From the NCBI GenBank assembly GCA_964195905.1, contig CAXMQV010000029.1:5618-69617 (forward strand): 64,000 nucleotides of DNA. The letters are read 5' to 3'. Under the pieces are notes generated by a model. That model was not told the DNA's origin, did no database searches, and was given only the letters and a program-made list of their open reading frames with translations. This stretch comes from an uncultured Gammaproteobacteria bacterium (GTDB lineage Bacteria; Actinomycetota; Acidimicrobiia; Spongiisociales; SHLN01). Positions 9,812-26,081 of the stretch are shown here, piece by piece. Made by a program: the position numbers and the translations under genes. The first letter of the stretch is position 1. Each line of letters begins with the position of its first letter.

Positions 9812-9831
9812 GGGAGGCGTAGACTTTCCTC

Positions 9832-10017: not shown

Positions 10018-10026
10018 AACTCCTTC

Positions 10027-11260: not shown

Positions 11261-11280
11261 CCATCAGACTTCCCGGCGTT

Positions 11281-12039
11281 CTAGCCCACCGGGAATCCGG
11301 CCGCGGCGTAGGCGTCTGCGAACTCCACGAGGGTCGTAGCTGTTGGTCCGTTGTAGTCGGTGACGACCAGACCGATGATCGGGACATCGATCTGTAGCAC
11401 CGCCGGTTGTGTCAAAAGGGTGGCATACCTCTCCGGATACGTCTCGGCGATCCAGGTCCGGAAGTCGTTCACGATTGCGGGCCGGTCGGAACGGATGACG
11501 AAGACCGTATGGATCAGGCCGTCCTTGATTCCAACGCTCAGCCGGCCGAACGTTGCGCCCTGGGGTCCTGCCAACCGCTCCGACACCGCGTCGCGCAGCC
11601 TGTAGTCACATCGCAGCCATGAGTCATAGCCGGCCGGCTCTCCCGGGGCCGTAGGACGGGCAGTGCAATCACCGATTTCGGTTCGGGTCTCGAGGGTGTG
11701 CTGATACTCGATGAACTTGTCGAGTCGGTCGCCGAAGGGGGATACGTGCTCGATGTTGAGGAAGCTCCAGTACGTCGGCCACATGAGGATGGTGGGGTCC
11801 TCTATGAGGTTGCGGGCGCGGGCGATTTCGCCACCGTCGATGGCGGCAGCGAAGGCGCGCACCGTTCGTTCGTCATCGGGAGGCCGTCCAATCCATCGGG
11901 CGGCGGAGAAGATGCCCAATACCACGATCACCAACCCGACCGCCAATCCCACGGCGAGTATGGGCGAGGAATCCGAGACTGGAACCGCAACTTTGCCCAC
12001 CAGCTGAACCCCTGCATCATCGGAAGCTGGGCCGTTCAT
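11281..12039 (-). CDS. Hypothetical protein with a single N-terminal TM anchor
   Basis: 252 aa ORF filling the gap between USP and the amidohydrolase; hydrophobic ILAVGLAVGLVIVVLGIF. No family recognised. Confidence 0.6.
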   Translation of the reverse strand: MNGPASDDAGVQLVGKVAVPVSDSSPILAVGLAVGLVIVVLGIFSAARWIGRPPDDERTVRAFAAAIDGGEIARARNLIEDPTILMWPTYWSFLNIEHVSPFGDRLDKFIEYQHTLETRTEIGDCTARPTAPGEPAGYDSWLRCDYRLRDAVSERLAGPQGATFGRLSVGIKDGLIHTVFVIRSDRPAIVNDFRTWIAETYPERYATLLTQPAVLQIDVPIIGLVVTDYNGPTATTLVEFADAYAAAGFPVG

Positions 12040-12167
12040 CCCACCATGATGCCCATCGTTGCGCCTCTACGTGAGGCGGCTTCCCGGACCATCCGGGACG
12101 CCGGCAGGGCAGTGGCGGGAGGGCCGTGCGCCTGGCTAGCCTGGCCAAACCCAACCAGGAGAGTTCA

Positions 12168-13595
12168 GTGGGCCAGACCACCCGTATTCGCAATGGCATC
12201 ATCCAGACTCCGACCGGCCCGGTCGAGGCCGACGTGCTCATCGACGGTGAGAGAATCTCAGCGCTCCTGGGCAGGAATAGCGAGGCCGTTGCCGACACCG
12301 AAGTCGATGCGACCGGCCTGTGGGTGCTTCCCGGCCTTATCGACCTCCACGCCCACACCCGGGTGCCAGGCTATGAGTACAAGGAGGACTATCTGACCTC
12401 CTCCCGGGCCGCCGCCGTCGGTGGCTACACGACATACATCGATATGCCGAACGTCGAGCCGCCCACGACGACCGTGGAGCTGTTCGAGGAAAAGCGGGCA
12501 ATCGCCGCCGAGAATTGTCTCATCGACTGGGGCCATTTCGTAGGGCCCGTCCAGTTCGATCAAATCGAAGGGTTCGCCAAGGCCGGCGCCACCGGGTTCA
12601 AGATTTTTCAGGTCACCGGCGGCTACCCGCACGATCCCCGGCTTGCCCTCGACGATCCCGGCCGGCTCTATCAGACATTCCAGGCGATCGCCGATACGGG
12701 TCTCCCGTGCGTGGTGCATCCGTTTTCCCAGACGCTTTTCGAGTATCTCTATGAAGAGGCGTCGGCGGGCGGCGCGCCCCGAGATATCCATACGTTCAGT
12801 GCGGTCTATACGCGGGACATTGTGTGGCGCACCGCGGTCGCCATCCTGCTCGAACTGCAAAGGGACACAGGAGTACGGCTCCAGGTCGTCCACACGCACG
12901 CCCCGGGCAGCCTGCGTTTGCTGCGGCAAGCGAAAGCAGATGGCGTTGGGGTTACCGTCGCAGCCGATCCGAAGTACTTCCATCTCCGCGACGAGGACAT
13001 CAATGCCCAGGGAGCTCGGGCGATCCCGGGCGGCGCCGTCACCAAGGATCCGGCCCGGATGGAGGAGATCTGGCGGTCGATCGAAGACGGGACCATCGAC
13101 ATCATCGACTCCGACCATGCTCCTCACACGCTGGAGGACCTGAAGTTGATGGAGAAAGATCCGCTCGTCGGTCCATTTGGTGCTCCGCATTACGACCATC
13201 TCTTGTCGCTCATGCTCACCGACGTACGCAAAGGCAAGATGCGCTTGGAGCGGCTCGTCGAAATGTTGACCGAGACTCCGGCCCGAATCCTCGGCGTGTA
13301 TCCCGAGAAGGGCGCGGTCATGCCTGGCTCGCTGGCCGACATCGTGCTGGTCGACCCCAACAAGAAGGTGGTTCCCAGGGACGAGGAGATGGAGTCGAAG
13401 TCGGCGTGGACACCGTATGTGGACTGGGAGTTCACGGGGGCGGCCGTCATGACCATGCTACGCGGCACCGTCATCGCCAAGGACGGGAAACCAGTCGGTG
13501 AGCCAGGGTTCGGTCGGCACATCGCCGGGCGGGCCCAGGACTGGGCACCGCCTACCAAAAAGGCGCACCAGGGGATCTCGCTGCAGGTTCGATAG
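12168..13595 (+). CDS. Dihydroorotase/allantoinase-like cyclic amidohydrolase
   Basis: DLHAHTRVPG (HxH), AAAVGGYTT..DMPN, GFKIF (carbamylated Lys), VVH, SDHAPH. GTG start after RBS AGGAGAG. Confidence 0.88.
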   Translation: MGQTTRIRNGIIQTPTGPVEADVLIDGERISALLGRNSEAVADTEVDATGLWVLPGLIDLHAHTRVPGYEYKEDYLTSSRAAAVGGYTTYIDMPNVEPPTTTVELFEEKRAIAAENCLIDWGHFVGPVQFDQIEGFAKAGATGFKIFQVTGGYPHDPRLALDDPGRLYQTFQAIADTGLPCVVHPFSQTLFEYLYEEASAGGAPRDIHTFSAVYTRDIVWRTAVAILLELQRDTGVRLQVVHTHAPGSLRLLRQAKADGVGVTVAADPKYFHLRDEDINAQGARAIPGGAVTKDPARMEEIWRSIEDGTIDIIDSDHAPHTLEDLKLMEKDPLVGPFGAPHYDHLLSLMLTDVRKGKMRLERLVEMLTETPARILGVYPEKGAVMPGSLADIVLVDPNKKVVPRDEEMESKSAWTPYVDWEFTGAAVMTMLRGTVIAKDGKPVGEPGFGRHIAGRAQDWAPPTKKAHQGISLQVR

Positions 13596-13603
13596 CCGTC
13601 GTC

Positions 13604-14827
13604 TTACCCGCCGGGGAGCTCAGGGAGCCGGTGGATCAGCTCGGCCAGGAGGGCAGCCCGCGGGACGATGCTGTCGATTTCGATGTGCTCGTCGGCGGTC
13701 ATGAGCCCGCCCCCGAGTGGTCCGAGCCCATCGAGGGTCGTCGTCGTGGGTCGGCGGAAGGCTGAGCTGCCGGCGGCGGCCGATGCGAAGGCGTCGATTT
13801 CCACGTCGAGCTCGGTACCGATGTGACGGGCCAGGGAAAGCATGCGGTCGGTCTCCTCATCCCACACCACGCCCGGGCGGTGGCTGTGCATGTGAAATTC
13901 GATCTCAGCCCGCGAGCCACCGGCGACGTCTGCCGCGATCTCGCGCATCCGACCCGTCGTTTCCTCCCACTTCAGGAGTGCCCTGGTCCGGATATCGACG
14001 ACTGCCTCGGCCGATGCAGGCACGATGCTGCGGCGGCGACCGGCCCTGGCAATGGTCACCGTCACCAGCGTGCCGGACTCGGGATCGGAAAGAGCATTGA
14101 ACGCGAGGATGAGCCGAGCCAGGACTTCGAGAGCATTCACTCCTGTGTCGCGGGCGCTCCCGGTATGCGCCTCCAGACCGGTGATTCGCAGGGACCCCAC
14201 GCCAATATGACCGCGAGCGGCCATGAGCTTGCCTCCACGGCGGGCGCATTCCACACACAGGCACCAGTCGGCTCCGGCGGCGGCCTCCTCGATCACGGGT
14301 CGGGATCCCAGACTGCCGGCTTGCTCGTCGCCCGCCAGCACCAATGCGATGTCCGGTCGCTCGATCCCCAGCGCATGGAGAGCCTGCAGTGCCGCCACCA
14401 GCACGACGAGCCCGCCTTTCATGTCGGCAATCCCGGGGCCGTAGGCGCGTCCGGCCTCGATGCGAAATGGCGTGTCGGCCAGTGCCCCGACCGGAAAGGC
14501 GGTATCGAGGTCTCCGAGCAGCAGCAAGCGGCCCGGTTCGGCGCCCGCCGCGAATCCCGAGTACGTGGCTCCCAGGTCGGTATACGGGATGCCGGGGGAG
14601 AAAAGCTCCTCCAGCCACCGGAGTGATGGAGTGACCGGGCGCTGGGGTGTGGCCTCAAGCGAGAACCCGACCGGGGTCAGCTCGGTGGCCAGGGTGGCGG
14701 CGACCGCCGCTACGCCTGCTGGATGTGCCGCGTGGCTTTCGGTGATCACGAGTTGTTCGAGAAGCTCGAACAGACGGGTCCGCTCTCCCTTGAGCCACCC
14801 TGCTATTGCCTGCGCCTCGTTCCTCAC
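13604..14827 (-). CDS. M20/M25/M40 family protein (carboxypeptidase G2-like) with substituted metal ligands
   Basis: LLLGDLDT, GPGIADMKGG, GDEQAGS, CVEC, AHTG, GLGPLGGGLMTADEH. GTG start 7 nt after TAAGCT. Confidence 0.85.
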   Translation of the reverse strand: MRNEAQAIAGWLKGERTRLFELLEQLVITESHAAHPAGVAAVAATLATELTPVGFSLEATPQRPVTPSLRWLEELFSPGIPYTDLGATYSGFAAGAEPGRLLLLGDLDTAFPVGALADTPFRIEAGRAYGPGIADMKGGLVVLVAALQALHALGIERPDIALVLAGDEQAGSLGSRPVIEEAAAGADWCLCVECARRGGKLMAARGHIGVGSLRITGLEAHTGSARDTGVNALEVLARLILAFNALSDPESGTLVTVTIARAGRRRSIVPASAEAVVDIRTRALLKWEETTGRMREIAADVAGGSRAEIEFHMHSHRPGVVWDEETDRMLSLARHIGTELDVEIDAFASAAAGSSAFRRPTTTTLDGLGPLGGGLMTADEHIEIDSIVPRAALLAELIHRLPELPGG

Positions 14828-14893
14828 GGATGCGAGCTTAGGCTCTCAGCTCGTGGGCGGTAGGGTCCGTGTCACAATCGAGAAGGAGCAGCC

Positions 14894-15919
14894 ATGGCGA
14901 AGAAACCTGAGTTTGGGGTTCGTCTTCCGGTCGCTGGACCGCTGGCGAATACCGCCGATATCCGCCGCAGCGCGGTCAAAACCGAGGAGCTTGGATTTGA
15001 CGCGCTGTGGGTACATGACTTCCTGGCGTGGACCACGTTTCAGGACCAACACCACGTGTCCTGCGGATCGCGCGAGGCCGTGGAGGCAGCGGACGCCCCT
15101 CCCGTCTTTTTCGAGTCGCTCACCAACCTTGCATTCCTGGCCGGCATCACAAGCGAAATCCGCCTCGGCGTCGCCGTGCTGTGTCTGCCTTACCGCAATC
15201 CGATTGTGGCGGCCAAACAGGTCGCCAACATCGATGTTCTCAGCAATGGGCGGCTCATACTGGGCATTGGCACAGGGGCGCCGGCCAGTACCCACAATGT
15301 CGATTTTGAGGTCCTCGGGGTCGAACGAAAAACCAAGTACCACGTCACTCGCGACTACCTGCGGGCCATGAAGGCTGTCTGGACGGAGGACAATCCGTCA
15401 TATGAGGGCGAGTACTTCAGCTTCCCGGAGACCGAGATCTGGCCCAAGCCGGTCCAGAAGCCCTATCCGCCGATCTGGACCGGCGGCCACGGCCCCACCG
15501 CCATGGACATCACCGCCGAATTCTCCACCGGCTGGATTCCGCCCTGGATTCCGCCCGAGGAGTACCCCGAACGAATCCGCAGTCTCGATGAGCTGGCCGT
15601 CGAGAAGGGTCGGGGCGGGACCGAGTTCGATATTGCCACCGAGGTGTACGTGTCGCTCGCCGAATCACGCGATGAGGCGATTAGCTCTGCCGAAAAAACG
15701 CTCGGAGTTCTGACCGAAGGCTTCGATCACACCGCCACCCAGGATTCCATCGCGGCGGCCGGGCTCATCGGCAGCGCCGATGACATCGGCGAGAAGATCG
15801 GCAAGTACATCGAGGCCGGGGTCAATCACTACGAGATGAAGTTCATCTATCACACGGTCGACCATTTGCTGGAGCAGCTGGAACATTTCGCCTCGGCCGT
15901 CACGCCTGCGTTCCGCTAG
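14894..15919 (+). CDS. LLM class flavin/F420-dependent oxidoreductase (LLM1)
   Basis: GFDALWVHD, IRLGVAVLCLPYRNP, LSNGRLILGIGTG, PKPVQKPYPPIWTGG. Confidence 0.9.
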   Translation: MAKKPEFGVRLPVAGPLANTADIRRSAVKTEELGFDALWVHDFLAWTTFQDQHHVSCGSREAVEAADAPPVFFESLTNLAFLAGITSEIRLGVAVLCLPYRNPIVAAKQVANIDVLSNGRLILGIGTGAPASTHNVDFEVLGVERKTKYHVTRDYLRAMKAVWTEDNPSYEGEYFSFPETEIWPKPVQKPYPPIWTGGHGPTAMDITAEFSTGWIPPWIPPEEYPERIRSLDELAVEKGRGGTEFDIATEVYVSLAESRDEAISSAEKTLGVLTEGFDHTATQDSIAAAGLIGSADDIGEKIGKYIEAGVNHYEMKFIYHTVDHLLEQLEHFASAVTPAFR

Positions 15920-15936
15920 GTCAGGAAAGGAAACAC

Positions 15937-16920
15937 ATGAAATTTGCATGGTTGTGCAGCCACGAGTCCTATCAGCCCGAGGTCCTGGTCGATCAGGCGG
16001 TTCTTGCCGAACAAGTCGGGTTCGACGTGGTACTCGGCTCGGATCACTTTCACCCGTGGGTGGATGACACATCGGCGGCCGGGTTCGTCTGGTCCTGGTT
16101 TGGGGCGGTGGCGGCCCGAACCGACCACGTCGAGTTGGCCACGTCGGTTACCTGTCCGCTGTTTCACTATCACCCGGCCCTCATCGCCCAGGCGGCTGCC
16201 ACCGTCGACCGCCTCTCAGGCGGCCGGTTCATCCTCGGCGTTGGAACCGGTGAGAACATCAACGAGGGCCCGATGGGCTTCGAATTCCCCGGCTACAAGG
16301 AGCGCATCGGCCGCATGCAGGAGGCGCTGGAGATCATGCACCGGCTTTTCGATGGCGAGAAGCTTGATTTCGCCGGTGAGTACTACGTCGCCGATAAGGC
16401 GAAGCTGTACAGCCCGCCGATCAGCCGGATTCCGATTTGGATGGCGGCCGGAGGGCCGAAGTCGGCAACATTTGCCGGCGGGCATGCTGATGGCTTGATT
16501 ACGAGCGTCAAGGTCCCTGCCGAGACTCAGGAGAAGGTCATAGACCCGTTCCATGCCGGAACGAAGGAGGCTGGCAAGGAAGAAGGGCACATCATGGCCA
16601 CCCGCTGGTGTGTGCTGGCCGAGCACGATGACGAAGCGTGGGAAGCGCTCGGGAGCATGCGCGGCTTGCGCGCTCCGGGTCGACTGGAAGTGGTCGATCC
16701 GATGGTGCTGCGGGAGCGAGCCGACGAGATGGACCGCGATGAGATCCTCAGTAAGTACACGATCGTTTCGTCCATCGATGAGCTGTACGAGATGTACAAG
16801 CCGCTCGTCGAGATGGGCGCCGACTACGTAGCCATCCAGATCGCCAGCACCGACCCCGATCGGACGCTTGCGATGGTCGGATCCGAGCTGTTGCCGGAGT
16901 TACGCAAGCTCGCGGGATGA
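15937..16920 (+). CDS. LLM class F420-dependent oxidoreductase, FGD/G6PDH-like (LLM2)
   Basis: SDHFHPW, TSVTCP..YHPALIAQAAAT, LGVGTGENINE; these match the F420-dependent glucose-6-phosphate dehydrogenase-like subfamily. Confidence 0.88.
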   Translation: MKFAWLCSHESYQPEVLVDQAVLAEQVGFDVVLGSDHFHPWVDDTSAAGFVWSWFGAVAARTDHVELATSVTCPLFHYHPALIAQAAATVDRLSGGRFILGVGTGENINEGPMGFEFPGYKERIGRMQEALEIMHRLFDGEKLDFAGEYYVADKAKLYSPPISRIPIWMAAGGPKSATFAGGHADGLITSVKVPAETQEKVIDPFHAGTKEAGKEEGHIMATRWCVLAEHDDEAWEALGSMRGLRAPGRLEVVDPMVLRERADEMDRDEILSKYTIVSSIDELYEMYKPLVEMGADYVAIQIASTDPDRTLAMVGSELLPELRKLAG

Positions 16921-16946
16921 GGCTCGATCCGGGCCGGTGGGGATGA

Positions 16947-17642
16947 CTACGCGCTCGCTCCGCCGAGATAGACGGCAGCTGTGTCCGCCCCGATGACCGT
17001 GGCGTACTTCTGGTTGAGCTCGAACAGGTTGACCCGGTGTGAGGTTTCGCTCCGGTCGAACGTCGCCTCAGCGACGACGAACGGGTTGAGGTTGTAGGAA
17101 AAGGCATCAACCGAGCTCGCCCGAACGCATCCACTGGTGGATCCGCCTGCTAGCAGAACGGTGTCGACTCCCAACTGGATGAGCCACGTCACAAGCGGCG
17201 TCGCGAAGAAGACGCTCGGTTTCGATTTGGTGACTACGAGGTCGCCAGGCTGGGGAGCGATCTCGTCAACGATGTCGTGTGCGCGCGGGGACTCATCGAC
17301 GGTGCCCAGTTTGGAGGCCCATCCCCCGGCCTCTGCCCTGGTCGGCCTCGGCGCGTTGCGCGAGTAGACGACCGGCACTCCGGCTTGCCGGGCTTCGCTC
17401 GCCAGCCGGGCGATGTGATCGATCGCCTGCCAGGCCGGCTCACCACAGGCAAGCGGGTAGTGACCACCGCCCGACCGCTCCCCGGTGAATGCGTAGGTCA
17501 CATCCACGATGAGGAGGGCTGGGTGGGTGCCTGCCGAGGCAGTGCGGCCGTATCCGGCGGCCGCATAGGTCGCCAACTCTTCAGAGCTGAAGAGGCCGGC
17601 CGCCAGGCTTCCGACGTCGAAACCGGTGAGTGCTTCACTCAC
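16947..17642 (-). CDS. Isochorismatase-family cysteine amidohydrolase (NicF/N-carbamoylsarcosine amidase-like)
   Basis: D-K-C triad: LLIVDVTYAF, VTKSKPSVFFAT, GGSTSGCVRASSVDAFS. Confidence 0.9.
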   Translation of the reverse strand: MSEALTGFDVGSLAAGLFSSEELATYAAAGYGRTASAGTHPALLIVDVTYAFTGERSGGGHYPLACGEPAWQAIDHIARLASEARQAGVPVVYSRNAPRPTRAEAGGWASKLGTVDESPRAHDIVDEIAPQPGDLVVTKSKPSVFFATPLVTWLIQLGVDTVLLAGGSTSGCVRASSVDAFSYNLNPFVVAEATFDRSETSHRVNLFELNQKYATVIGADTAAVYLGGASA

Positions 17643-18607
17643 TGCTTGAGCTCGTCAAGGCCGGCTTCGGCGAGTAGCTCGAGCTGCTCGAGGTAGCGGG
17701 CGAAGTCGAGGCGAAGATCGAGCACGACATAGTCGAGTCCCCGTTCGGCGAACTTGGCGAGCTCGCGCTTGGCATCCTCGGGAGTGCCGGCAATGACCAG
17801 CCCCTCCAAGTCCTCGATCGTGCTGAAGGAACCGGAGGCCGGAGGCTTCCAGAACTTCGCCCCCGCCGAGCTTTGCGCCAGGGCCGCAACGTCGATGTTT
17901 TCGCGTGCCTTGCTCCGATCCCGATTCACGTTCACAATTGGCACCACTCCGACGGTGAGCTGCTTGCCGCTCTCGGCACTCTGCTCGTCGAGGTACTTGA
18001 GGCGGGCATCGAGGGTGGCGAGAGGGATGCGCCCCGGGAGCCAGCCGTCCATGTACTCCAGGCTGCGGCGGATCGATGCCTGGGTGGTGCCTCCGTATAC
18101 GAGCGGGATCGGGGCGACCGGTTTGGGTTCGAGGGTGATGTCCTCGAACTGGAATACTTCCCCCTGGTACGAGACGTTGTCCGACGACCACACCGCCCGC
18201 AGGATCTCCATGGTTTCAGCAAAGATCTGCTCCCGTTGCTCGCCATCGAGTCCGGCGGCGGCGAATTCGCGGGAATTGTTGCCGAGCCCGTACCCGGCAA
18301 TGACACGGCCGCCCGACAGTACGCTGAGGGCGGCCAGGTTCTGGGCCACCTTGAGAGGCCAGCGAATGGGTATGAGCACCGCGCTCCCCAGCTTCACCCG
18401 GGTCGTGACGGAACTGATCGCCGCCAGGGTCATGAGTGGTTCGATGAAGGTGATGTCGGTTCCCTCCATCCCATGCGGTGTCCAGAGGATGTGATCGCGC
18501 ACCCACAGCGAGTCGTAGCCCAATTCCTCGATTCGGCGGCTGCCATCGATGAGAGTCTCGATCGTGGCATGTTCGCCGAAGTGGGGGAGCAGCACTCCAA
18601 TTTCCAT
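17639..18607 (-). CDS. LLM class flavin/F420-dependent oxidoreductase (LLM3)
   Basis: MEIGVLLPHF, GYDSLWVRDH, VKLGSAVLIP, LSGGRVIAGYGLG; 4-nt overlap with the isochorismatase start. Confidence 0.9.
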   Translation of the reverse strand: MEIGVLLPHFGEHATIETLIDGSRRIEELGYDSLWVRDHILWTPHGMEGTDITFIEPLMTLAAISSVTTRVKLGSAVLIPIRWPLKVAQNLAALSVLSGGRVIAGYGLGNNSREFAAAGLDGEQREQIFAETMEILRAVWSSDNVSYQGEVFQFEDITLEPKPVAPIPLVYGGTTQASIRRSLEYMDGWLPGRIPLATLDARLKYLDEQSAESGKQLTVGVVPIVNVNRDRSKARENIDVAALAQSSAGAKFWKPPASGSFSTIEDLEGLVIAGTPEDAKRELAKFAERGLDYVVLDLRLDFARYLEQLELLAEAGLDELKQ

Positions 18608-18999
18608 CAGTTCTCCTCGGGTTCGTCGACGATGTGAAAGTCGTGACCGGCCGGTGCGTAGATCTCGATGAAGGCGGCGGTATCCGGTCCGGGATTGCTC
18701 GTGCCGTGCACCACCCCCGGCGGGATGAAAAGCACATCATTGGCCTCCAGCGTGGCGACAGCGCCTTCGACGTCAACCTCGATCACGCCGCTCAGGACGA
18801 TGTAGACGTTTTCGGCCTCCCGGTGGTAGTGGCGCGGCCCTGGCCCCGACCCCGGGGCCAGGTGGTTCACATGGACGTCGACGTTGCGGGCCCCTCCTTG
18901 CCCCTCATCGACGAGGCGGAAGCTCTCACCCCGATCGCCGCGCAGCGCTCGGCGCGGGGCACTCTCGAAAGACGTCAAGAATGGTGGCATGGTCCCCAT
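18607..18999 (-). CDS. Cupin domain protein
   Basis: PRHYHREAENVYIVLSG, GVVHGTSN (cupin His/Glu motifs). Confidence 0.88.
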   Translation of the reverse strand: MGTMPPFLTSFESAPRRALRGDRGESFRLVDEGQGGARNVDVHVNHLAPGSGPGPRHYHREAENVYIVLSGVIEVDVEGAVATLEANDVLFIPPGVVHGTSNPGPDTAAFIEIYAPAGHDFHIVDEPEEN

Positions 19000-19115
19000 C
19001 GTGCTCCAGTGATCATCGATAACAACCAGATTAGGCGCCGACCGCTGGCCGGCCGTTGCCGAGACGGGTCGACGCCCTGGCGGGTACAGTCAGTTCGTTC
19101 GCCAGGAGGTACACG

Positions 19116-20012
19116 TTGGAAACCGTCAGCTTCTTCTCGTCGCCCGGCGTCCCGCTGGTCGCCGATCTCTACCTTCCCGACTCCGAGCCTCCCGTATCCG
19201 GCCATCCGACGATCGTTGCCTGCCTGGGATGGGGGAGCGTCAAGGAGCTAATGGAGCCGTGGGGACAGGCACTGGCGGGAGCCGGCTATGCCGTCCTCAT
19301 TCCCGACTACCGGGGCTTCGGCGCCAGCGGGGGAACCCGCGGCCAGTGCTTCCCATCTGAACATATCGATGACATCCGGGCGGCTATCACCTTCGCCGGT
19401 GAGCGCGGTGGACTGGATGCCGGACGGCTTGCCCTGCTCGGCGTGAGTTATGGAGGAGCGATCGCCGTTGCCGCCGGGGGCGTGGACGAACGTCCGGCCG
19501 CCATCATTTCGATCGTGGGGTACGGCAGCGGCGAGCGTCACCTGCGGGCGGTGCGATCGCCGGAGCAGTGGACGGAGTTCCGGGCACGGCTGGCGGCCGA
19601 TAGAGACCACCGAGTACTCACGGGCCGGAGCGAGGACATCGATCCGGACGAGATCTTGCTGCGAGATGCAGAGGCTCGCGCCTGGCGCACCCGGGTCGAG
19701 GAGCAATACCCGCATATGGCGTTTCGCACCACGCTGGAATCGGCGGAGCGGATCATCGAGTTCCGACCGGAGCGCTCCCTGCCCTACGACCCTCCCAAAC
19801 CGATCTTGCTCATTCACGCCGGGGACGACACGATGGTTCCCGTCGAGGAGTCCCGGACAATGTGGGAGAGGGCCGTCGAACCCAAGCGTCTCGTCGTCAT
19901 TCCCGGAATCGGCCACCACGAGGTCCACGCCGGTGATGCCTTTCGCCAGGTGATCGGCTATGCCGACGAGTGGCTGCAAACTCATGTCGTTCGAGATCCC
20001 GGTCATGGGTGA
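19116..20012 (+). CDS. Alpha/beta fold hydrolase
   Basis: PDYRGFGASGG, nucleophile elbow GVSYGG, LIHAGDD, GHHE. TTG start 6 nt after AGGAGG. Confidence 0.88.
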   Translation: METVSFFSSPGVPLVADLYLPDSEPPVSGHPTIVACLGWGSVKELMEPWGQALAGAGYAVLIPDYRGFGASGGTRGQCFPSEHIDDIRAAITFAGERGGLDAGRLALLGVSYGGAIAVAAGGVDERPAAIISIVGYGSGERHLRAVRSPEQWTEFRARLAADRDHRVLTGRSEDIDPDEILLRDAEARAWRTRVEEQYPHMAFRTTLESAERIIEFRPERSLPYDPPKPILLIHAGDDTMVPVEESRTMWERAVEPKRLVVIPGIGHHEVHAGDAFRQVIGYADEWLQTHVVRDPGHG

Positions 20013-21006
20013 GTTCCCGGCCCGGTTCGGGCTCGTGTTGCCGCATTTCGGCTCCGGGCCTGACGCGGCCCATCTCCTCGATATTGCCCGGCAGGCAGAA
20101 ACTGCCGGGTTTGATTCGCTGTGGGTGCGTGATCGGTTGGTGGCTGGTGCACCCCACGGGCTACTGCTCGAAGCCGGCGGGACCACCTTCCTCGAGCCGC
20201 TGCTCACCTTGGCGGCCGTCGCCGCCGTCACCAATCGGATACATCTCGGCACCGCCGTGCTGTTGCCCAATCGGCATCCTTTGCGTCTGGCACAAGAGGT
20301 GGGAACGCTGTGGCGCCTCGCCCCCGAAAGGCTTCTCCTCGGGCTCGGGCTCGGGGTGGGACCCGGCAACTTTGAGCCGCTCGGATTCGACTACGACACC
20401 CGTCTCGAGCTCTTCGAGGAGATCGCCGAAGTCCTGCGAGGGCTGCCGGCGGCAGGTCCGCTCCACCATCAGGGAACCCACTTCTCATTCGAGGATCTCG
20501 AGATCAACCCGCAACCGGGCGCCCGGGTCCCGCTCTACTACGGCGGCGTAAGCCGAGCGGCGGTCCGCCGTGCCTTCGAGTGGGCCGACGGCTGGATCGC
20601 CGGCCGGCTACCGCACGACACGTTCCTATCCCGCATGCAACTGGTGAAGAGATATGAGGCCGATACCGGACGGAATCTCGACATTGCCACGATGCCTATC
20701 ACCCTGGTTGATGACGGTGACGGCCGCCACCTGGCAACTGCGCGCGAGGCGGTGGCGACGCTCGCCCGCAGCGCCGAGGGCGCTCGCGATTGGATCAAGC
20801 CGCCATCAGGCCGTTTCGAGACGGTCGATGATCTTTCGGGCCTGCTCATTTCGGGACCGCCGGATCGATGCGCCGGGCAGGTGGGAGCCATGCTCGAGGC
20901 GGGTGTGACCCACATCGTCTTCGATTTACGTCTCGTGTTCGACGATTTCGAACGCCAGATCGAACTGCTGGCCGGGCAGGTCATTCCGGCGTTCAGTGGA
21001 AGCTGA
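19984..21006 (+). CDS. LLM class flavin/F420-dependent oxidoreductase (LLM4; paralog of LLM3)
   Basis: FGLVLPHF, GFDSLWVRDR, IHLGTAVLLP, PLYYGG. The start may instead be ATG 20005. Confidence 0.88.
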   Translation: MSFEIPVMGEFPARFGLVLPHFGSGPDAAHLLDIARQAETAGFDSLWVRDRLVAGAPHGLLLEAGGTTFLEPLLTLAAVAAVTNRIHLGTAVLLPNRHPLRLAQEVGTLWRLAPERLLLGLGLGVGPGNFEPLGFDYDTRLELFEEIAEVLRGLPAAGPLHHQGTHFSFEDLEINPQPGARVPLYYGGVSRAAVRRAFEWADGWIAGRLPHDTFLSRMQLVKRYEADTGRNLDIATMPITLVDDGDGRHLATAREAVATLARSAEGARDWIKPPSGRFETVDDLSGLLISGPPDRCAGQVGAMLEAGVTHIVFDLRLVFDDFERQIELLAGQVIPAFSGS

Positions 21007-21039
21007 CCATGGGTTTTCGCCGATGAACCGAGAAGTCAG

Positions 21040-21068
21040 TTGCAGGATCGGGCAAGAGTTCATAATGT
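21040..21068 (+). promoter_or_regulatory. Putative housekeeping-sigma promoter of the ABC importer operon
   Basis: TTGCAG(21040-45)-17 nt-TAATGT(21063-68) in a relatively AT-rich gap. Confidence 0.45.
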
Positions 21069-21158
21069 GCCTCGAAGTCATGGGACCTTGGGAGGGGGTT
21101 TGACTTCCCCCCGGCAACTTGAAATAGCGGTCGCGTGATCGCCGAGAAAGGATTGTTC

Positions 21159-22298
21159 ATGAGGCGGATATCGAAACTGCTGGGCGTTTTTCTCGCCTTA
21201 GCCCTCATTGCTGCGGCTTGCGGCAGCGATGACAGCTCTTCCGACACCACGACCGCAGCCGGAGGGGGCGACGTCGAGCAAGTCTTCTTCATCCTCGACT
21301 GGGTGCCGAAAGGCCAGACATCGCCCTTCTACCTTGCCCTCGACAAAGGGTTCTGGGCCGATCGCGGCCTGGCGGTTCAGATCACTCGCGGGTTCGGATC
21401 CGGCGACACCTCCGCCCGCATCGGATTGGGTGAAGGCGACTTCGGGTTTGCCGGTGTGGGCGCGGTGATGCGCACGATCGCCGAGGGCCTGCCGCTCGTC
21501 GAGATCGCGGCCATTGCCTCGACTGCCCCGACCGCGGTGTTCGCCGACCCGGCGGCCGGAGTCTCGGGCGATAATCCGTCGAGCCTCGTTGGTCTTCGTG
21601 GTGCGGTCGACGCCGGTGACGAGAACGACCAGCTCTTCAAGGCATTCGCCGGTTCGGCCGGCATCGATTACGAGGGGGTCGACTGGCAGTACGTGGACGG
21701 TGCCGGCATCGGCTCCATCGCCTCGGGCCAGGCCGACTTTGTCATGGACTGGATCACGAATCTGCCCGAGTGGTGGCTGGCCGATCCTCCGATCGAGCCT
21801 GACACCTACTGGGTCGGTCGCGCCGTCGACATCTACGGCAATGGCCTCATCACCCGACCTGAGTTGCTCGAATCGAATCCCGACCTGGTCCGGCGCTTCG
21901 TTGAGGGCGCCCTGGCCGGCTACGAGTACGTGATCGAGGGTGGGGTGGCTGCCCACAACGAGTCGATCGATGCCCTCCTCAAGTACAACCCTGAGTTGAA
22001 GGAACAACCAAACGCCCGTGAATTCCATCTCGGGAACTTGCAGCTGTTCTTGACGCTCATGTTGACCGAGGACGTCAGAGACGACGGCATCGGTTACTTC
22101 GATCCGGATAAGAAGCAGCGGAGCCTCGACTTCATCAACGACTACCTGCTCGATTCGCCCTTGACGCTCGACCAGGCCTTCATTACGGACCTGATCATCG
22201 AGAAGGGCGATGTGAAGATCGATGACTTCGACGGAGCCAGGGCGCAACTGGCGACAGTGTTGGGGAGGGAGAACCCCCTCTCCGCGTTCCTGGAATAG
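21159..22298 (+). CDS. ABC transporter substrate-binding lipoprotein, NMT1/THI5/SsuA-like
   Basis: Lipobox LIAAAC; FILDWVPKGQTSPFYLALDKGFWADRGL; IYGNGLIT. ATG after RBS GAAAGGA. Confidence 0.9.
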   Translation: MRRISKLLGVFLALALIAAACGSDDSSSDTTTAAGGGDVEQVFFILDWVPKGQTSPFYLALDKGFWADRGLAVQITRGFGSGDTSARIGLGEGDFGFAGVGAVMRTIAEGLPLVEIAAIASTAPTAVFADPAAGVSGDNPSSLVGLRGAVDAGDENDQLFKAFAGSAGIDYEGVDWQYVDGAGIGSIASGQADFVMDWITNLPEWWLADPPIEPDTYWVGRAVDIYGNGLITRPELLESNPDLVRRFVEGALAGYEYVIEGGVAAHNESIDALLKYNPELKEQPNAREFHLGNLQLFLTLMLTEDVRDDGIGYFDPDKKQRSLDFINDYLLDSPLTLDQAFITDLIIEKGDVKIDDFDGARAQLATVLGRENPLSAFLE

Positions 22299-22313
22299 CT
22301 TGACGCACGTCGT

Positions 22314-22347
22314 GGGACCCCGCGCCGCTCTGCGGCGCGGGGTCTCC
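22314..22347 (+). other. GC-rich stem-loop between the SBP and ATPase genes (mRNA-stabilising or attenuating hairpin)
   Basis: gggaccccgcgccgc-tct-gcggcgcggggtctc. Confidence 0.65.
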
Positions 22348-22379
22348 GAGCCCCGAGGAATATCTGGAGGCATGCGCTA

Positions 22380-23207
22380 ATGGGCATCAAACTCGATCGC
22401 CTGGACAAGGTCTTCCAGACGGACGACCTGACCGTGCAGGCACTCCGTGACGTTTCTGCGGAGATCGGCGACAGCGAGTTCGTCTCCATCATCGGGCCGA
22501 GTGGATGTGGAAAGAGCACTCTGCTCCGGCTGGTTTCCGGCCTCCTTCCTCCAACTCAGGGAACCGTGTACCTTGACGGGACTCCGGTGGAGGGTCCGGC
22601 CGGAAACATCGGCTTCGTGTTCCAGGCTCCGACGCTCCTGAAGTGGCGGACGGTTTTCAGGAATGTCATGTTCCCGTACGAGGTGCTGGCTTCACAGCGC
22701 AAGGCGACCGGATCAAAGGAGGACTACGAGGACAGGGCGCGCATGCTGCTGAAGATGGCGGGTCTCGAGGACTTCCCCGACGCCTATCCCAAGCAACTGT
22801 CGGGCGGCATGCAGCAGCGGGTTTCGATTTGCCGGGCACTCATCCACGACCCCGAACTGCTGCTGATGGATGAGCCGTTCGGGGCCCTTGACGAGTTCAC
22901 TCGCGAAAGGATGAACGAAGAGCTGCTGAGAATCTGGCGCGAGACCCGCAAGACGGTGATCTTCGTGACCCACCACATCCCCGAAGCGGTCTTCCTGTCG
23001 GATCGGATTCTCGTGATGTCCCCCCGACCAGGCACCATTCTCGGCGAGGTGGTGGTCGACCTTCCCAGGCCCAGGATCGCCGAGATGCGCGAGAGCGTTG
23101 AATTTCTAGAACAGGTCGTAGCCACTCGCCATCTCATCGGTATCAGGCCGGGTGATGATTCGCTCAGCCCCGATTTCTCGTCGCCACTCAAGGACGGGAG
23201 CGGGTGA
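22380..23207 (+). CDS. ABC transporter ATP-binding protein (TauB/SsuB/NrtD family)
   Basis: GPSGCGKST, YPKQLSGGMQQR, LLLMDEPFGALD. Confidence 0.95.
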   Translation: MGIKLDRLDKVFQTDDLTVQALRDVSAEIGDSEFVSIIGPSGCGKSTLLRLVSGLLPPTQGTVYLDGTPVEGPAGNIGFVFQAPTLLKWRTVFRNVMFPYEVLASQRKATGSKEDYEDRARMLLKMAGLEDFPDAYPKQLSGGMQQRVSICRALIHDPELLLMDEPFGALDEFTRERMNEELLRIWRETRKTVIFVTHHIPEAVFLSDRILVMSPRPGTILGEVVVDLPRPRIAEMRESVEFLEQVVATRHLIGIRPGDDSLSPDFSSPLKDGSG

Positions 23208-23208
23208 G

Positions 23209-24015
23209 GTGAGCACGACGCTGAGCGATCCGGCCCGGGCGGAGGCCGGCGCTCCGATGCCGAGCAGGCGTACCGAGCAGATCCGCCGGTTCTCCGATCC
23301 GATCCTGTTCGCCGCGCTGTTCGTCTTCGGTTGGCAGGCCTTTGTGTGGATCTCCGGCTTCCATCCGGTTGTTCTTCCCCCTCCGGCACGCGTCTTCCGG
23401 ATCCTTGCTAACCAGGGCGATTTCCTGGTGGAAAACATGCTCGTGACGATGCGAACCATCGTCTGGGGCTTCGTCATCGGAGGCCTTCTCGGCTTCGTGG
23501 CCGGGGTCCTCATCAACTATTTCGAGCGCTTCCGCCGGGCCGTTTACCCGATCCTGGTGGCGCTGTATGTGATCCCCAAAGCCGTATTCATTCCGCTGTT
23601 CATTCTCTGGTGGGGAGTCGGACCGCTCTACAAGATCCTCGTGACGGTTCTGTTGGCATTCTTCCCCGTGACGGAGAACACCATCACCGGACTGCAGGGA
23701 GTGGATCGTGAGATGATGGAACTCACCCAGTCGCTCGGTGGCAGAAGGTGGTTCGCCTTCCGGAAGGTTGCCCTGCCTTTCTCGCTGCCCTTCATTCTGG
23801 CGGGTCTGCGAATCGGGCTCACCGAGGCGTTCATCGGGGGAGTCCTCAGCGAGATCCTGGTTCCCAGCACCGGGATCGGTTCCCGAATCGTCGAAGCCGC
23901 AGCCTTCTCCAATACCGAGTTCATCATCGCTTCGATCATGGTGGTGGCTTCGTTCGGCATAGCGGCGTACTTCCTGTTCCTGTGGATCGAGAAGAGGCTG
24001 ACATTTTGGCAGTGA
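23209..24015 (+). CDS. ABC transporter permease (SsuC/TauC family)
   Basis: VLPPP..V, IPKAVFIPLFILWWG, EAA-like loop, LPFILAGLRIG. Confidence 0.92.
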   Translation: MSTTLSDPARAEAGAPMPSRRTEQIRRFSDPILFAALFVFGWQAFVWISGFHPVVLPPPARVFRILANQGDFLVENMLVTMRTIVWGFVIGGLLGFVAGVLINYFERFRRAVYPILVALYVIPKAVFIPLFILWWGVGPLYKILVTVLLAFFPVTENTITGLQGVDREMMELTQSLGGRRWFAFRKVALPFSLPFILAGLRIGLTEAFIGGVLSEILVPSTGIGSRIVEAAAFSNTEFIIASIMVVASFGIAAYFLFLWIEKRLTFWQ

Positions 24016-24815
24016 TTCACGATTCCGTTGCGCCGCCCGGCCGGGCCCGGAAGATCGCCCGCCGCCTGTGGAACACGAGAGAGCTGCTGTTGACGCTGCT
24101 CGGGATTCTCGTGTTCTGGATCGTCATCATCGAGGTGCGAGATTTCCATCGCATCGTGCTCCCGTCTCCGGGCGCTGTTGTCGATGCGTTTACCGGCAAC
24201 CTCAGCGAGTATGCCAGCGCCGGCTTCATCACCTTCTACGAAATGATCCTCGGCTTCATCGCCGGCGGGGCGCTCGGCTTCTTCTCTGCGATCGGCATTT
24301 TCTATTCGCCGTTCCTGCGGAGATCCCTCTACCCGTTGCTGCTTGGCTTTCGAATCGTTCCCAAAGTGGCGTTCGTCCCGCTCTTTCTCGTGTGGTTCGG
24401 GATCGGGGTTGGAGTGAAGGTGGCGTTGGCATCCTTCGCGATCTTCTTCCTCATCCTCGTGCAAACGCTGCTCGGTCTCACCAGCGTCGAACCGGAGCTC
24501 GTCGAGCTCGGGCGCTCTCTGAAAATGAGCGAGCTTTCGCTACTCCGGCGTATCCGCCTCCCGGCGGCCCTCCCGGCGATCATGGTCGGGGTGAAGTTGG
24601 GAATCACCTACGCCCTTACCAACGTCGTGGTGGCTGAGATGGTGGTCGCAACCAACGGGCTCGGGTTTCTGGTAGTGGAAGCACGCTCGAAAATCAAGAC
24701 CGACGAGATGATCGCGGCCATCTTCGTCGTGGCGTTCATCGGGCTGATCGTGTACGCAGTCGGGTTGTGGGTAGAGCGAAAGGTCGTGTTCTGGTACGTG
24801 GAGGAGAACCGGTGA
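24012..24815 (+). CDS. ABC transporter permease (SsuC/TauC family), second subunit
   Basis: GTGA overlap with the previous stop; VLPSPGAV, VPKVAFVPLFLVWFG, RLPAALPAIMVGVK. Confidence 0.92.
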   Translation: MIHDSVAPPGRARKIARRLWNTRELLLTLLGILVFWIVIIEVRDFHRIVLPSPGAVVDAFTGNLSEYASAGFITFYEMILGFIAGGALGFFSAIGIFYSPFLRRSLYPLLLGFRIVPKVAFVPLFLVWFGIGVGVKVALASFAIFFLILVQTLLGLTSVEPELVELGRSLKMSELSLLRRIRLPAALPAIMVGVKLGITYALTNVVVAEMVVATNGLGFLVVEARSKIKTDEMIAAIFVVAFIGLIVYAVGLWVERKVVFWYVEENR

Positions 24816-24901
24816 CTTCTCATGCCTTAGGCTCCCATCTCTTACTGGACGTGTCGGGGCAGCCCTGAGCGGCCGCAGGCGGGATCGATGAAAGGAATCG
24901 C

Positions 24902-25897
24902 GTGACGCGCCTCTTTGAGACGCTCCGACACAAGTGGATCGCCCTCCCGGGGGTGTTTCTCGTTGCCATCGGCGCCGGGTTGTGGGGTACCGATGGATTG
25001 TTCCGCCGGGGGCTTGCGCTCGAGTTGCCGGCTGCAACCGTCGTGTTCTGGGAGCACCTGATCCTTGTCATGATCACGGCGCCTCTGATCGTCCGGTTCT
25101 ACCGGACCCGCCCGCGGCTTGCGCCACGCGACATAGTCGCCCTGCTGCTGGTCGGAGTCGGAGCATCGGCGGTAGCCACGATGCTCTTCACAGAGGCATT
25201 TAGCTATGGGAATCCGACCACACCTCTGCTCCTTCAGAAGCTGCAGCCCGTGGTTGCCATTCTCGGCGCATACGTGCTTCTGCGGGAAAGGCTCCTGCCG
25301 AGATACGGCGTGTATTTCCTCCTGGCCGTGGGAAGCGCATATCTCATTTCCTTCTCGGACCCGTCCAATGTGAGCGTCAATCAGCTGGCACCGGCGCTCC
25401 TTGCCATTGGAGCGGCGTCGCTGTGGGGACTCGGGACAGTGCTCGGACGGCACCTCACTGCCAAGATCGAGCCGAATCAGCTGACGGCCCTGCGTTTCGC
25501 AATAGGCCTGCCGGCAACCGCTCTCATCGTCGGCTGGCGGGGAGAAACGAGCATCGCCACCGGCATCGGCTTCGGAGACTTCGGGACTCTTGTGGCGCTG
25601 GCGCTCATCCCCGGCCTCGCCGCTCTTGCGATCTACTACCGGGGCCTCTCCGGGACGCCCGCGTCCGCGGCGACGCTCGCCGAATTGGCCTTCCCGCTCA
25701 CGGCGATCCTCATCGGTTGGGCCGTGTTCGACACCGTGCCCACCCGTACCCAATGGCTGGGAATCACCGTCCTGGCAGTGACAATTCTTACGATGAGCCG
25801 GGCTGCCCGGCAGACCCCCGAGGCTCTCGGCGTGCGGGGTCCAGGGAGTGCGGTGAGCAGCCAACTGAGGCCGGGATCCGAGCAAGGCGCCGCCTAG
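24902..25897 (+). CDS. DMT/EamA family transporter
   Basis: About 10 hydrophobic segments in two repeats; LQKLQPVVAILGAYVLLRERL. Confidence 0.85.
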   Translation: MTRLFETLRHKWIALPGVFLVAIGAGLWGTDGLFRRGLALELPAATVVFWEHLILVMITAPLIVRFYRTRPRLAPRDIVALLLVGVGASAVATMLFTEAFSYGNPTTPLLLQKLQPVVAILGAYVLLRERLLPRYGVYFLLAVGSAYLISFSDPSNVSVNQLAPALLAIGAASLWGLGTVLGRHLTAKIEPNQLTALRFAIGLPATALIVGWRGETSIATGIGFGDFGTLVALALIPGLAALAIYYRGLSGTPASAATLAELAFPLTAILIGWAVFDTVPTRTQWLGITVLAVTILTMSRAARQTPEALGVRGPGSAVSSQLRPGSEQGAA

Positions 25898-26081
25898 CTC
25901 TTCTTGACAGGACCGACCCATGATCGGCGTCCCCGTTGGAACGAACTCTGAACGCCATGCCCCACCGTTTCTGTCGGTCGTGGTTTCCGGATGTTGCGCG
26001 GTATGAGAAATAGGCGGCGGTCCCGGCACGACGTCGCGCCTGCGTGGGCGGTCGAAGTGCGGGCCCCATTCGCTCCGGGCT

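Follow-up and report, generated by a model that had tools for sequence, protein, structure and literature searches.

A possible F420-linked island for the import and breakdown of a cyclic amide in an Acidimicrobiia genome

Which compound does a bacterium take up and dismantle when it carries, side by side, a complete ATP-binding cassette (ABC) importer, a hydantoinase-like enzyme, a cysteine hydrolase related to amidases and four oxidoreductases of the luciferase-like monooxygenase (LLM) type? This question is raised by a block of 13 genes at positions 12168-24815 of a 64,000-nucleotide (nt) stretch of contig CAXMQV010000029.1, the whole of which is called the window here. The contig (C29 in our numbering; G and L numbers are our handles for genomes and loci) belongs to a 2.7-Mb metagenome-assembled genome (MAG) of an uncultured marine bacterium that is about 90% complete, and the closest named relative of this genome in public collections is an Acidimicrobiia MAG. 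The block encodes a cyclic amidohydrolase (g01), an M20 protein (g02), the oxidoreductases LLM1 to LLM4 (g03, g04, g06 and g09), an isochorismatase-family hydrolase (g05), a cupin (g07), an alpha/beta hydrolase (g08) and the importer (g10 to g13). We propose, with a probability of roughly one half, that this island imports a cyclic amide, ureide or imide, which would then be reduced at the expense of reduced coenzyme F420 (F420H2) and hydrolyzed. Candidate substrates are polar compounds, such as hydantoin-, dihydropyrimidine-, dihydroorotate-, glutarimide- or pyridone-like molecules, and the role of the island would be nutrient scavenging, probably of nitrogen.

The gene content is well founded. 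Pfam and NCBIfam scans of the open reading frames (ORFs) return 13 genes with the expected families, gene calls made independently for public contigs of identical sequence agree on the 13 genes and on the g01 start at 12168, and the start codons of the block genes have plausible ribosome-binding sites upstream. An earlier account of this DNA, made from its letters only (the sequence-only reading), had listed these 13 genes and families in five units with no local regulator, and the domain scans and the coordinates bear it out.

The block is very probably a real unit. Four genomes of the same genus (G001, G004, G005 and G006) keep the flanking backbone, namely the genes for phosphoenolpyruvate carboxylase, a phosphoribosyltransferase, a flavin mononucleotide (FMN) reductase, YceI, arginase, an alcohol dehydrogenase and PolX, and are without the whole block. 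All four hold nothing of it between the phosphoribosyltransferase gene and the EamA or FMN reductase genes, and in G001 the spacing from phosphoribosyltransferase to EamA is 86 nt. From this empty site it follows that a single insertion or deletion spans about 14.2 kb, beginning with the Usp gene (10814) and ending with the second permease gene (24815). An orthologue of g05 is absent from all seven same-genus genomes (no match in six, a 33% paralogue in one) and occurs, with 67% identity, in one genome from a different genus of the same family. An 8.3-kb contig of that genome (G009; locus L018) carries g01 to g07 in the same order at 66-92% identity. The order of the block is preserved, at 64-92% identity, on at least six independent contigs from metagenomes or MAGs, and two of those from the metagenome scan (L116 and L120) hold all 13 genes in the same order at 65-92%. 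On contigs with g01 and g02, the importer, the cupin, LLM3, the isochorismatase-like gene, the M20 gene and the amidohydrolase gene occur together wherever the contig extends far enough, usually with the alpha/beta hydrolase. The block is probably an accessory island that can be exchanged horizontally; a tblastn search for g06 on plasmids (E<=1e-30) gave no match.

The related contigs also show that the gene set is modular, the LLM1/LLM2 pair and LLM4 each being optional. L118 is without LLM4, L119 is without the alpha/beta hydrolase and LLM4, and L115 and L117 are without LLM1/LLM2, L115 also without LLM4; all four carry their subsets in block order, and in both L115 and L117, g05 directly adjoins the M20-amidohydrolase pair. 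The Acidimicrobiia MAG locus L001/L113 keeps g05 to g13 at 56-81% identity and has, in place of g01 to g04, HyuA/HyuB, a further LLM, a molybdenum hydroxylase of three subunits, an Amidohydro_2 protein and three multi-RidA proteins. The g01 orthologue was not found in the L113 genome, in which the best match is 32% identical. The sequence-only reading had taken the 13 genes for one uptake and catabolism set, to be given up if orthologues never co-clustered in related genomes. They do co-cluster, as the syntenic contigs show; the fixed membership of 13 does not stand, as LLM1/LLM2 and LLM4 are absent from variants and g01/g02 from one relative.

An older association lies within this island. A search seeded with the alignment of LLM3 orthologues gave 80 loci in many phyla, of which the two closest were related contigs already known and were left out. 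The census, made by tblastn, therefore covers the remaining 78 loci, with an LLM3 identity of 40-54%; many of them are cut by contig ends, and the counts are lower bounds. A g01-like amidohydrolase lies within 2 kb of the LLM3 homologue in 46 of the 78 loci and is its commonest neighbor across phyla. In 44 loci a g08-like alpha/beta-fold gene is found within 2 kb, and in 33 there is a NitT/TauT-type ATPase within 8 kb; further neighbors are LLM2-like (22 loci), LLM1-like (13), isochorismatase-like (5) and M20 (1) genes. An all-against-all clustering of the ORFs of these loci was unusable, since its conserved clusters held overlapping frames, consistent with shadow or antisense ORFs in GC-rich DNA. 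The genomes and MAGs with this association carry the labels Actinomycetota, Chloroflexota, Acidobacteria, Binatia and Alphaproteobacteria, LLM3-like genes are also present in halophilic archaea, and the triad is found in cultivable genera, among them Amycolatopsis, Mycolicibacterium, Nocardioides, Actinomadura and Pseudonocardia. The first two of these genera have the order alpha/beta-fold gene, amidohydrolase, LLM, with 4-nt overlaps or a 1-nt gap and translational coupling, next to a GntR/FCD regulator, transporters of the NMT1-ABC or Tct type, genes of the class II aldolase family, a molybdenum hydroxylase and a lyase of the fumarase/aspartase class. Molybdenum hydroxylase, Amidohydro_2 decarboxylase-type and RidA genes give the relatives an N-heterocycle context. 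The distant amidohydrolases share the HP and SDHAPH signatures of g01 and the LLMs share VRDH. The distant alpha/beta-fold partners (L025-L102) have GSGTGG, GTGTGG or GIGTGG in place of GxSxG, with the His and Asp conserved, and may not be serine hydrolases. Judged by gene neighborhood, the older core is an LLM3-type LLM with a cyclic amidohydrolase and an alpha/beta-fold protein.

The modularity could also mean that two or three unrelated modules stand side by side: a hydantoinase-type module of g01 and g02, with or without g03 and g04, and an importer-linked one, g05 to g13, that acts on another compound. L113 speaks for this with its g05 to g13 free of g01 to g04, as do L025, which has ABC genes, g01, g02 and an LLM3-like gene without cupin or isochorismatase, the loss of g03/g04 in L115 and L117, and the division of the block into five transcription units of alternating orientation. 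Yet the whole block was gained or lost together in the window's lineage, g01/g02 still adjoin g05 where g03/g04 are missing, and g01-like amidohydrolases are the partner most often found beside LLM3-like genes across phyla. Moreover, HyuA/HyuB in L113 occupy the place of g01/g02 beside the core. We consider such a juxtaposition improbable and prefer a single island for a cyclic amide, ureide or imide.

The reduction step of this proposal depends on the cofactor of the LLMs, which is likely to be F420. The four LLMs are 322-348 amino acids long and score above, or nearly at, the cut-offs of models for F420-type LLMs. LLM1 (g03) reaches 187.0 bits and LLM3 (g06) 176.4 bits with TIGR03619 (cut-off 166.9), and LLM2 (g04) reaches 232.3 bits with TIGR03557 (cut-off 210.4). 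LLM1 is 88-91% identical in L018, L116, L118 and L120, is absent from L115 and L117, and stands in the tree as a clade of its own whose sister is the LLM3-like family; LLM2 belongs to a separate family. LLM3 is 74-89% identical in the related contigs, and its family has the VRDH motif in 90 of 91 sequences. LLM4 (g09) is 41% identical to LLM3, has an Arg where LLM3 has a conserved His, and is absent from L115, L118 and L119. Within the LLM3-like family of 95 members it branches as the sister of the island LLM3 clade (support 0.97) and, by this position, is a lineage-specific duplicate of LLM3. LLM2 is the most conserved gene of the block, with 91-92% identity. Its best solved relatives are the glucose-6-phosphate dehydrogenase that depends on F420 (FGD; 186 bits), Adf (184) and fHMAD (168), and it aligns over its full length with FGD1, Adf and fHMAD with the catalytic residues kept, including the His/Trp motif SDHFHPW and the Glu of GTGE. 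Basic residues are kept at three pocket positions as well, with the Lys retained and a Lys-to-Arg and an Arg-to-Lys swap relative to FGD1; we take these positions to be the phosphate-binding ones of Rh-FGD1 (Nguyen et al. 2017).

The genomes add to this picture. The sequence-only reading had named a host without F420 synthesis genes, together with LLMs that bind no flavin, as evidence against its proposal. The synthesis genes are there: a cofD of 270 bits, above cut-off, a cofE homologue directly downstream, and an fbiC-like ORF of 822 amino acids whose CofH domain scores 490.9 bits. Of 24 genomes with an LLM3-like gene, the greater part of which carry labels other than Actinomycetota, 19 have a cofD above cut-off and two more have contig-end fragments of it, against three of 14 control genomes. 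In one alphaproteobacterial order, cofD is found in 4 of 41 genomes and an LLM3-like gene in one of the 41, and in this genome, which has both, the two genes are 2 kb apart. Five distinct loci have F420 synthesis genes at a distance of up to 10 kb from the LLM3-like gene. One of these, in a marine actinobacterium, has an F420-ligase gene between two LLM2-like genes. The alphaproteobacterial MAG with cofD and the LLM3-like gene side by side (L044:889-14910) has the order cofC, cofE, FGD-like LLM, ABC genes, CobW, NMT1 binding protein, alpha/beta-fold gene, LLM3-like gene, 6-phosphogluconolactonase, cofD, IclR. The F420 LLMs are divided into F420-reducing dehydrogenases and F420H2-using reductases (PMC6279831). 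We infer that LLM2 is a dehydrogenase that recharges F420H2 and that LLM1, LLM3 and LLM4 are reductases.

The LLMs could instead be FMN- and O2-dependent enzymes of ring cleavage, either RutA-like amide oxygenases or Baeyer-Villiger enzymes of type II. In that case g05, as a RutB-like enzyme, and g08, as a RutD-like enzyme or lactonase, would hydrolyze the peracids or lactones that they form, with reduced flavin from the nearby FMN reductase. The Rut logic was also part of the sequence-only reading, and at the level of superfamilies it holds, with LLM, isochorismatase and alpha/beta hydrolase matching RutA, RutB and RutD. RidA genes, of the RutC family, accompany the core in L113 and L138, an NADPH-dependent FMN reductase is encoded at 26082-26627, the best named family of g08 is a lactonase, and g08 and g09 overlap. 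At the level of the enzymes the scores are far below the equivalog cut-offs, with 38.5-45.4 bits against 498.3 for RutA and 58.2 against 377.95 for RutB. The LLMs, of 322-348 amino acids, are above or nearly at the F420-LLM cut-offs. Genes of the LLM3 family go with cofD across genomes and have physical links to those of F420 synthesis. The FMN reductase is the sole flavin reductase nearby and lies outside the block; it is part of the backbone, being present in block-less relatives and absent from the syntenic contigs. No simple sequence marker that separates F420 from FMN LLMs is given in the review and classification papers (PMC8518648, PMC6279831). On balance the oxygenase route is unlikely, and F420H2-dependent reduction is retained.

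The hydrolytic step begins with g01, the proposed ring-opening enzyme. Its best solved relative is the Arthrobacter L-hydantoinase 1GKR, matched over the full length with 233 bits, and the next best is an allantoinase with 159. The HxH motif, the position of the carboxylated Lys, two His and the Asp of SDH all align with 1GKR, and the orthologues on related contigs are 85-88% identical. The named equivalogs are not reached: allantoinase AllB (TIGR03178) gives 250.8 bits against 357.85, dihydropyrimidinase (TIGR02033) 213.1 against 393.25, and dihydroorotase and hydantoin-5-propionate amidohydrolase also stay under their cut-offs. In the reductive pyrimidine and allantoin pathways, as the sequence-only reading noted, a cyclic amidohydrolase goes with an M20 carbamoylase, and it gave the latter role to g02. 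This candidate was rejected, as g02 is related to carboxypeptidase G2 (CPG2), stands outside the carbamoylase clade and has three metal ligands replaced. It matches CPG2 with 116-118 bits, its best NCBIfam families are glutamate carboxypeptidase-like, and no carbamoylase family is among the 25 best NCBIfam matches listed. Three of the five ligands are changed, D106, Q169 and M376 standing for His112, Glu176 and His385 of CPG2, whereas the protein retains the catalytic Glu, the bridging Asp and Glu200. Eight orthologues, with identities as low as 46%, all have these replacements, which therefore represent a conserved variant site rather than decay. The gene adjoins g01 wherever it is found.

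The cysteine hydrolase g05 is a likelier de-carbamoylating or de-amidating enzyme than g02, because its nearest solved relatives are N-carbamoylsarcosine amidohydrolases (112.5 and 79 bits). Also close are 3OT4/3UAO (111 bits) and 4L07 (91 bits), which we believe to be maleamate amidohydrolases; the structures of RutB and biuret hydrolase score far lower. Its candidate triad of Asp47, Lys and Cys172 is invariant in three aligned orthologues. In 11 loci, homologues of g05 in the same order, about 40% identical to it, stand beside cyclic amidohydrolases. This pairing, together with the HyuA/HyuB swap in L113, points to a two-step logic in which a cyclic amide is opened and a carbamoyl or amide group is then removed. 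As for the other two hydrolytic or metal proteins, g07 has an HxH..E...H site whose His57, His59, Glu63 and His98 (3-His-1-Glu) are invariant in nine orthologues. The alpha/beta protein g08 has the nucleophile elbow GVSYG with an Asp and a His; its best solved relative is 7QJM (190.8 bits) and its closest named family the lactonase UilS (146 bits against a 400-bit cut-off). Catalytic motifs are intact in g01, g05, g07 and g08.

A pyrimidine, one of the ligand types mentioned in the sequence-only reading, was weighed as substrate against the rest of the genome. Another contig of the same MAG (C69; L148:1319-10295) carries a second cluster that joins a cyclic amidohydrolase to an F420 LLM; it has an ABC importer and an alpha/beta hydrolase together with a true dihydropyrimidinase (549.6 bits against a cut-off of 393), a CoA-acylating methylmalonate-semialdehyde dehydrogenase (753 bits) and an F420-dependent LLM of family TIGR03842 (546 against 295). 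A canonical dihydropyrimidine dehydrogenase is not visible in this stretch of C69. Uracil and thymine are unlikely for the island because of this separate dihydropyrimidinase/TIGR03842-LLM cluster, and the island most likely serves another substrate. The same reading had called the substrate heteroaromatic, and the evidence points instead to a cyclic amide, ureide or imide.

Uptake is served by a complete and contiguous importer of the NitT/TauT type, with a binding protein, an ATPase and two permeases. The binding protein g10 has a signal peptide and an LAAC lipobox. Its solved relatives are only ThiY-type and THI5 proteins (51, 48 and 43 bits), including the formylaminopyrimidine-binding 3IX1, with no SsuA or TauA match in the PDB and no NCBIfam match. 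The best NCBIfam matches of the ATPase g11 are the SaoA, taurine and nitrate ATPases, and the permeases g12 and g13 are SaoP/SsuC/TauC-like, all under the cut-offs. By these relatives, the importer is compatible with a heterocyclic ligand. Scavenging of organosulfur compounds of the ssu or tau type, in which SsuD-like LLMs and an SsuE-like FMN reductase would release sulfite from sulfonates brought in by a NitT/TauT importer, would suit the ATPase and permeases, nearest to the Sao, Tau, Ssu and Nrt systems, as well as the NMT1 family of g10, the SsuE-like family of the nearby FMN_red gene and weak SsuD/SfnG matches (86 bits for g03). It is very unlikely, however, as SsuD is reached with 86.3 bits against a cut-off of 518.2, g10 matches ThiY/THI5-type structures only, desulfonation has no use for three amide hydrolases and a cupin, the FMN reductase does not belong to the block and the LLMs are linked to F420. 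Salvage of thiamine pyrimidine (ThiXYZ/YlmB type), with formylaminopyrimidine imported by g10 and deformylated by the M20 protein, can draw on 3IX1 and on YlmB, an M20-family deformylase, and is hardly tenable given a g10 match of 48-51 bits, no thiamine pyrophosphate (TPP) riboswitch or other Rfam match in 9000-29000, no TenA or ThiD domains in the block, the altered M20 metal site, and four LLMs, a hydantoinase-like enzyme and an amidase that would be superfluous for salvage.

Taken as a route for a cyclic amide, ureide or imide, the island would work as follows. The lipoprotein g10 and the importer g11-g13 would take up the substrate. The TIGR03619-type LLMs would transfer a hydride from F420H2, saturating or reducing the ring or a conjugated side group, with LLM3 as the core reductase and its duplicate LLM4 and LLM1 as optional additions. 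The FGD-like LLM2 would regenerate F420H2, probably from a sugar phosphate. The metallo-amidohydrolase g01, possibly together with g02, would open the reduced ring, and g05 would then strip off the carbamoyl or amide group so formed, releasing NH3 and perhaps CO2. The hydrolase g08 and the metal cupin g07 could process a side group or the product of ring cleavage.

Table 1. Features of the island and its immediate surroundings in the window.
Feature	Position	Strand	Basis or remark
g01 cyclic amidohydrolase	12168-13595	+	Pfam Amidohydro_1
g02 M20 protein, CPG2-related, altered metal site	13604-14827	-	Pfam Peptidase_M20 + M20_dimer
g03 (LLM1) F420-type LLM oxidoreductase (predicted)	14894-15919	+	TIGR03619
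g04 (LLM2) FGD/FSD-like F420-dependent dehydrogenase (predicted)	15937-16920	+	TIGR03557
g05 isochorismatase-family cysteine hydrolase	16947-17642	-	Pfam Isochorismatase
g06 (LLM3) F420-type LLM (predicted)	17639-18607	-	TIGR03619
g07 small monocupin	18607-18999	-	Pfam Cupin_2
g08 alpha/beta-fold serine hydrolase	19116-20012	+	Pfam Hydrolase_4, Abhydrolase_1, Peptidase_S15
g09 (LLM4) LLM	19960-21006	+	near-cut-off TIGR03619
g10 NMT1/THI5-type substrate-binding lipoprotein	21159-22298	+	Pfam NMT1
GC-rich hairpin GGGACCCCGCGCCGCTCTGCGGCGCGGGGTCTC	22299-22379	+	read directly from the window sequence
g11 ABC ATPase, NitT/TauT type	22380-23207	+	Pfam ABC_tran
g12 ABC permease	23209-24015	+	Pfam BPD_transp_1
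g13 ABC permease	24012-24815	+	Pfam BPD_transp_1
Usp gene	10814-11260	+	in the same insertion/deletion segment as the 13 genes
252-aa membrane-anchored protein, no known family	11281-12039	-	in the same insertion/deletion segment

The coordinates (Table 1) define five transcription units of alternating orientation. Within them, g05/g06 and g12/g13 overlap by 4 nt and g06/g07 by 1 nt, and the gaps are 1 nt for g11/g12 and 17 nt for g03/g04. The overlap of g08/g09 is 8-53 nt by the start chosen, and 29 nt with the ATG at 19984. The remaining junctions are convergent or divergent. Pfam and NCBIfam scans show no helix-turn-helix or other regulator domain inside or adjoining the block, no riboswitch or any other Rfam match occurs in 9000-29000 at E<=1, and an alignment of orthologous intergenic regions gave no shared operator. 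The sole conserved spacer element is TACAGT before g08, which resembles a -10 promoter hexamer. It is contained in GGTACAGTC at window positions 19095-19105, upstream of g08. This conserved sequence occurs in the window and in five other contigs; its form in L113 is CTACAGTC, and the rest of the spacer has diverged. The strong, GC-rich hairpin stands directly 3' of g10 and 5' of g11, and it may, as a partial terminator, cause more binding protein to be made relative to the transporter.

Some observations concern the surroundings of the block. The genes for the FMN reductase, YceI, EamA and arginase were considered as members of the cluster and rejected, as all are genus backbone; the arginase is a true RocF (284.7 bits against a cut-off of 227.6). 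The protein of 252 amino acids has one predicted membrane helix (residues 26-51) and two invariant Cys, and it recurs beside the cluster in L116 and L120 with 53-59% identity, at opposite ends. It has no Pfam or NCBIfam match, and its structure model, with a predicted local distance difference test (pLDDT) score of 52, is too poor for use. L018 has an extra ORF of 226 amino acids at 5456-6136 on the minus strand, between LLM2 and the isochorismatase-like gene, with no Pfam match; the window has 26 nt at this place. The MAG of L018/L023 (contig CAXMOO010000116.1), whose syntenic copy is the closest one, is labelled "uncultured Gammaproteobacteria bacterium" in its record and is placed by the genome collection in the family of the window genome, so that the label looks wrong.

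Several points weigh against the proposal of an F420H2-dependent route. None of the genes of the block reaches the equivalog threshold of a named pathway enzyme. The F420 assignment is drawn from family models, co-occurrence and gene neighborhood; TIGR03619 is a "subfamily_domain" model, and LLM4, with 165.7 bits, falls 1.2 bits short of its cut-off. The set is modular, so more than one pathway may be encoded. The reaction of g08 may differ from that of the distant partners, GVSYG standing against their GxGTGG. The structure model of g07 (pLDDT 89) retrieves generic monocupins only with Foldseek, and the roles given to g07, g08 and g02 are guesses. Nitrogen scavenging is assumed, with neither a regulator nor a nitrogen-control site found at the block. 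We infer the individual reactions, the order of the steps and the substrate class from the gene families and their company.

The wider meaning can be stated with this in mind. F420 is made by many soil and marine bacteria, and to our knowledge few physiological substrates of F420 enzymes are known outside methanogens and mycobacteria. The block ties F420-type LLMs to an importer, to a ring opener that resembles hydantoinases and to a relative of N-carbamoylsarcosine amidohydrolase that would serve as amidase; in relatives there is also a tie to F420 synthesis genes. Its M20 partner is unusual. The core association in cultivable actinomycetes makes a link between F420 and nitrogen-ring catabolism testable at the bench. 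Such a link would also add a route of turnover for dissolved organic nitrogen in marine sediments. A broader idea, which we offer tentatively and consider rather doubtful, is that the LLM3-type enzymes with their amidohydrolase and alpha/beta-fold neighbors represent an undescribed, widespread F420H2 route that dismantles N-heterocycles or cyclic amides. The island of the window would then be a self-contained version with an importer, an FGD-like generator of F420H2 and a new mononuclear-type M20 partner. If this idea is true, it would give one concrete physiological reason for the presence of F420 in so many non-methanogenic environmental microbes.

The sequence-only reading did not recognize the gene combination as a described pathway, and this judgement is upheld by the equivalog scores and by the literature on F420, LLMs, hydantoinases, N-heterocycle and pyrimidine catabolism, in which we found no description of it. 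The closest systems each share a part of it. The hyu system of Arthrobacter aurescens combines the L-hydantoinase HyuH with the L-N-carbamoylase HyuC. Shared with it are the match of g01 over the full length of HyuH with every metal ligand, the M20 neighbor and the dedicated importer in the cluster. In contrast, g01 is about one-third identical to HyuH, the M20 protein of the block is not of the carbamoylase or allantoate-amidohydrolase type, and the block is without a racemase and adds four F420-type LLMs, a cysteine hydrolase, a cupin and an alpha/beta hydrolase. The creatinine/N-methylhydantoin route uses an ATP-dependent N-methylhydantoinase of the HyuA/HyuB family and then N-carbamoylsarcosine amidohydrolase. 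Here the likeness lies in an isochorismatase-family cysteine hydrolase that acts after hydantoin ring opening, and in the L113 core that stands beside HyuA/HyuB. The differences are that g05 matches with 79-112 bits only, that the block uses a metal-dependent cyclic amidohydrolase instead of HyuA/HyuB, and that it is without creatinine deaminase or sarcosine oxidase and has redox enzymes unneeded in that route.

With the Rut system of Escherichia coli (RutA-G), the block shares the set of LLM, isochorismatase-like and alpha/beta hydrolase, and its relatives share RidA. It differs in the RutA and RutB scores given above, in LLMs of the F420 type rather than FMN monooxygenases, and in a flavin reductase that lies outside the block. 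No RidA domain occurs in the scanned proteins in or beside the block, and two RidA queries taken from related loci found no match in the genome that covers at least half their length. The reductive pyrimidine pathway (PydA/PydB/PydC) has the same sequence of ring reduction, opening by a cyclic amidohydrolase and removal of the carbamoyl group, but g01, at 213 bits, is below the dihydropyrimidinase cut-off of 393.

For two of the steps there are precedents in chemical logic. In the degradation of picrate and dinitrophenol, the F420-dependent hydride transferases NpdC and NpdI, which are of the LLM type, deliver a hydride to an electron-poor ring. The hxn nicotinate route of Aspergillus nidulans dismantles a pyridone ring with an ene-reductase, a ketoreductase, a cyclic imidase and an amidase, and thus offers a model for the order of reductase, imidase and amidase. 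Molybdenum hydroxylases stand beside the core in L113 and L108; the block, in contrast, is without nitroaromatic genes and without a hydroxylase. The last comparison is with the FGD/FSD enzymes (PMC6279831). LLM2 stays at 198 bits against the 420-bit cut-off of the FGD equivalog, with two pocket residues swapped. It passes TIGR03557 and matches FGD1 from one end to the other, with the His, Trp and Glu retained, and L044 places an FGD-like LLM with 6-phosphogluconolactonase and cofC, cofD and cofE near an LLM3-like gene. The parts of the island are ordinary superfamilies, and its chemical logic has precedents.

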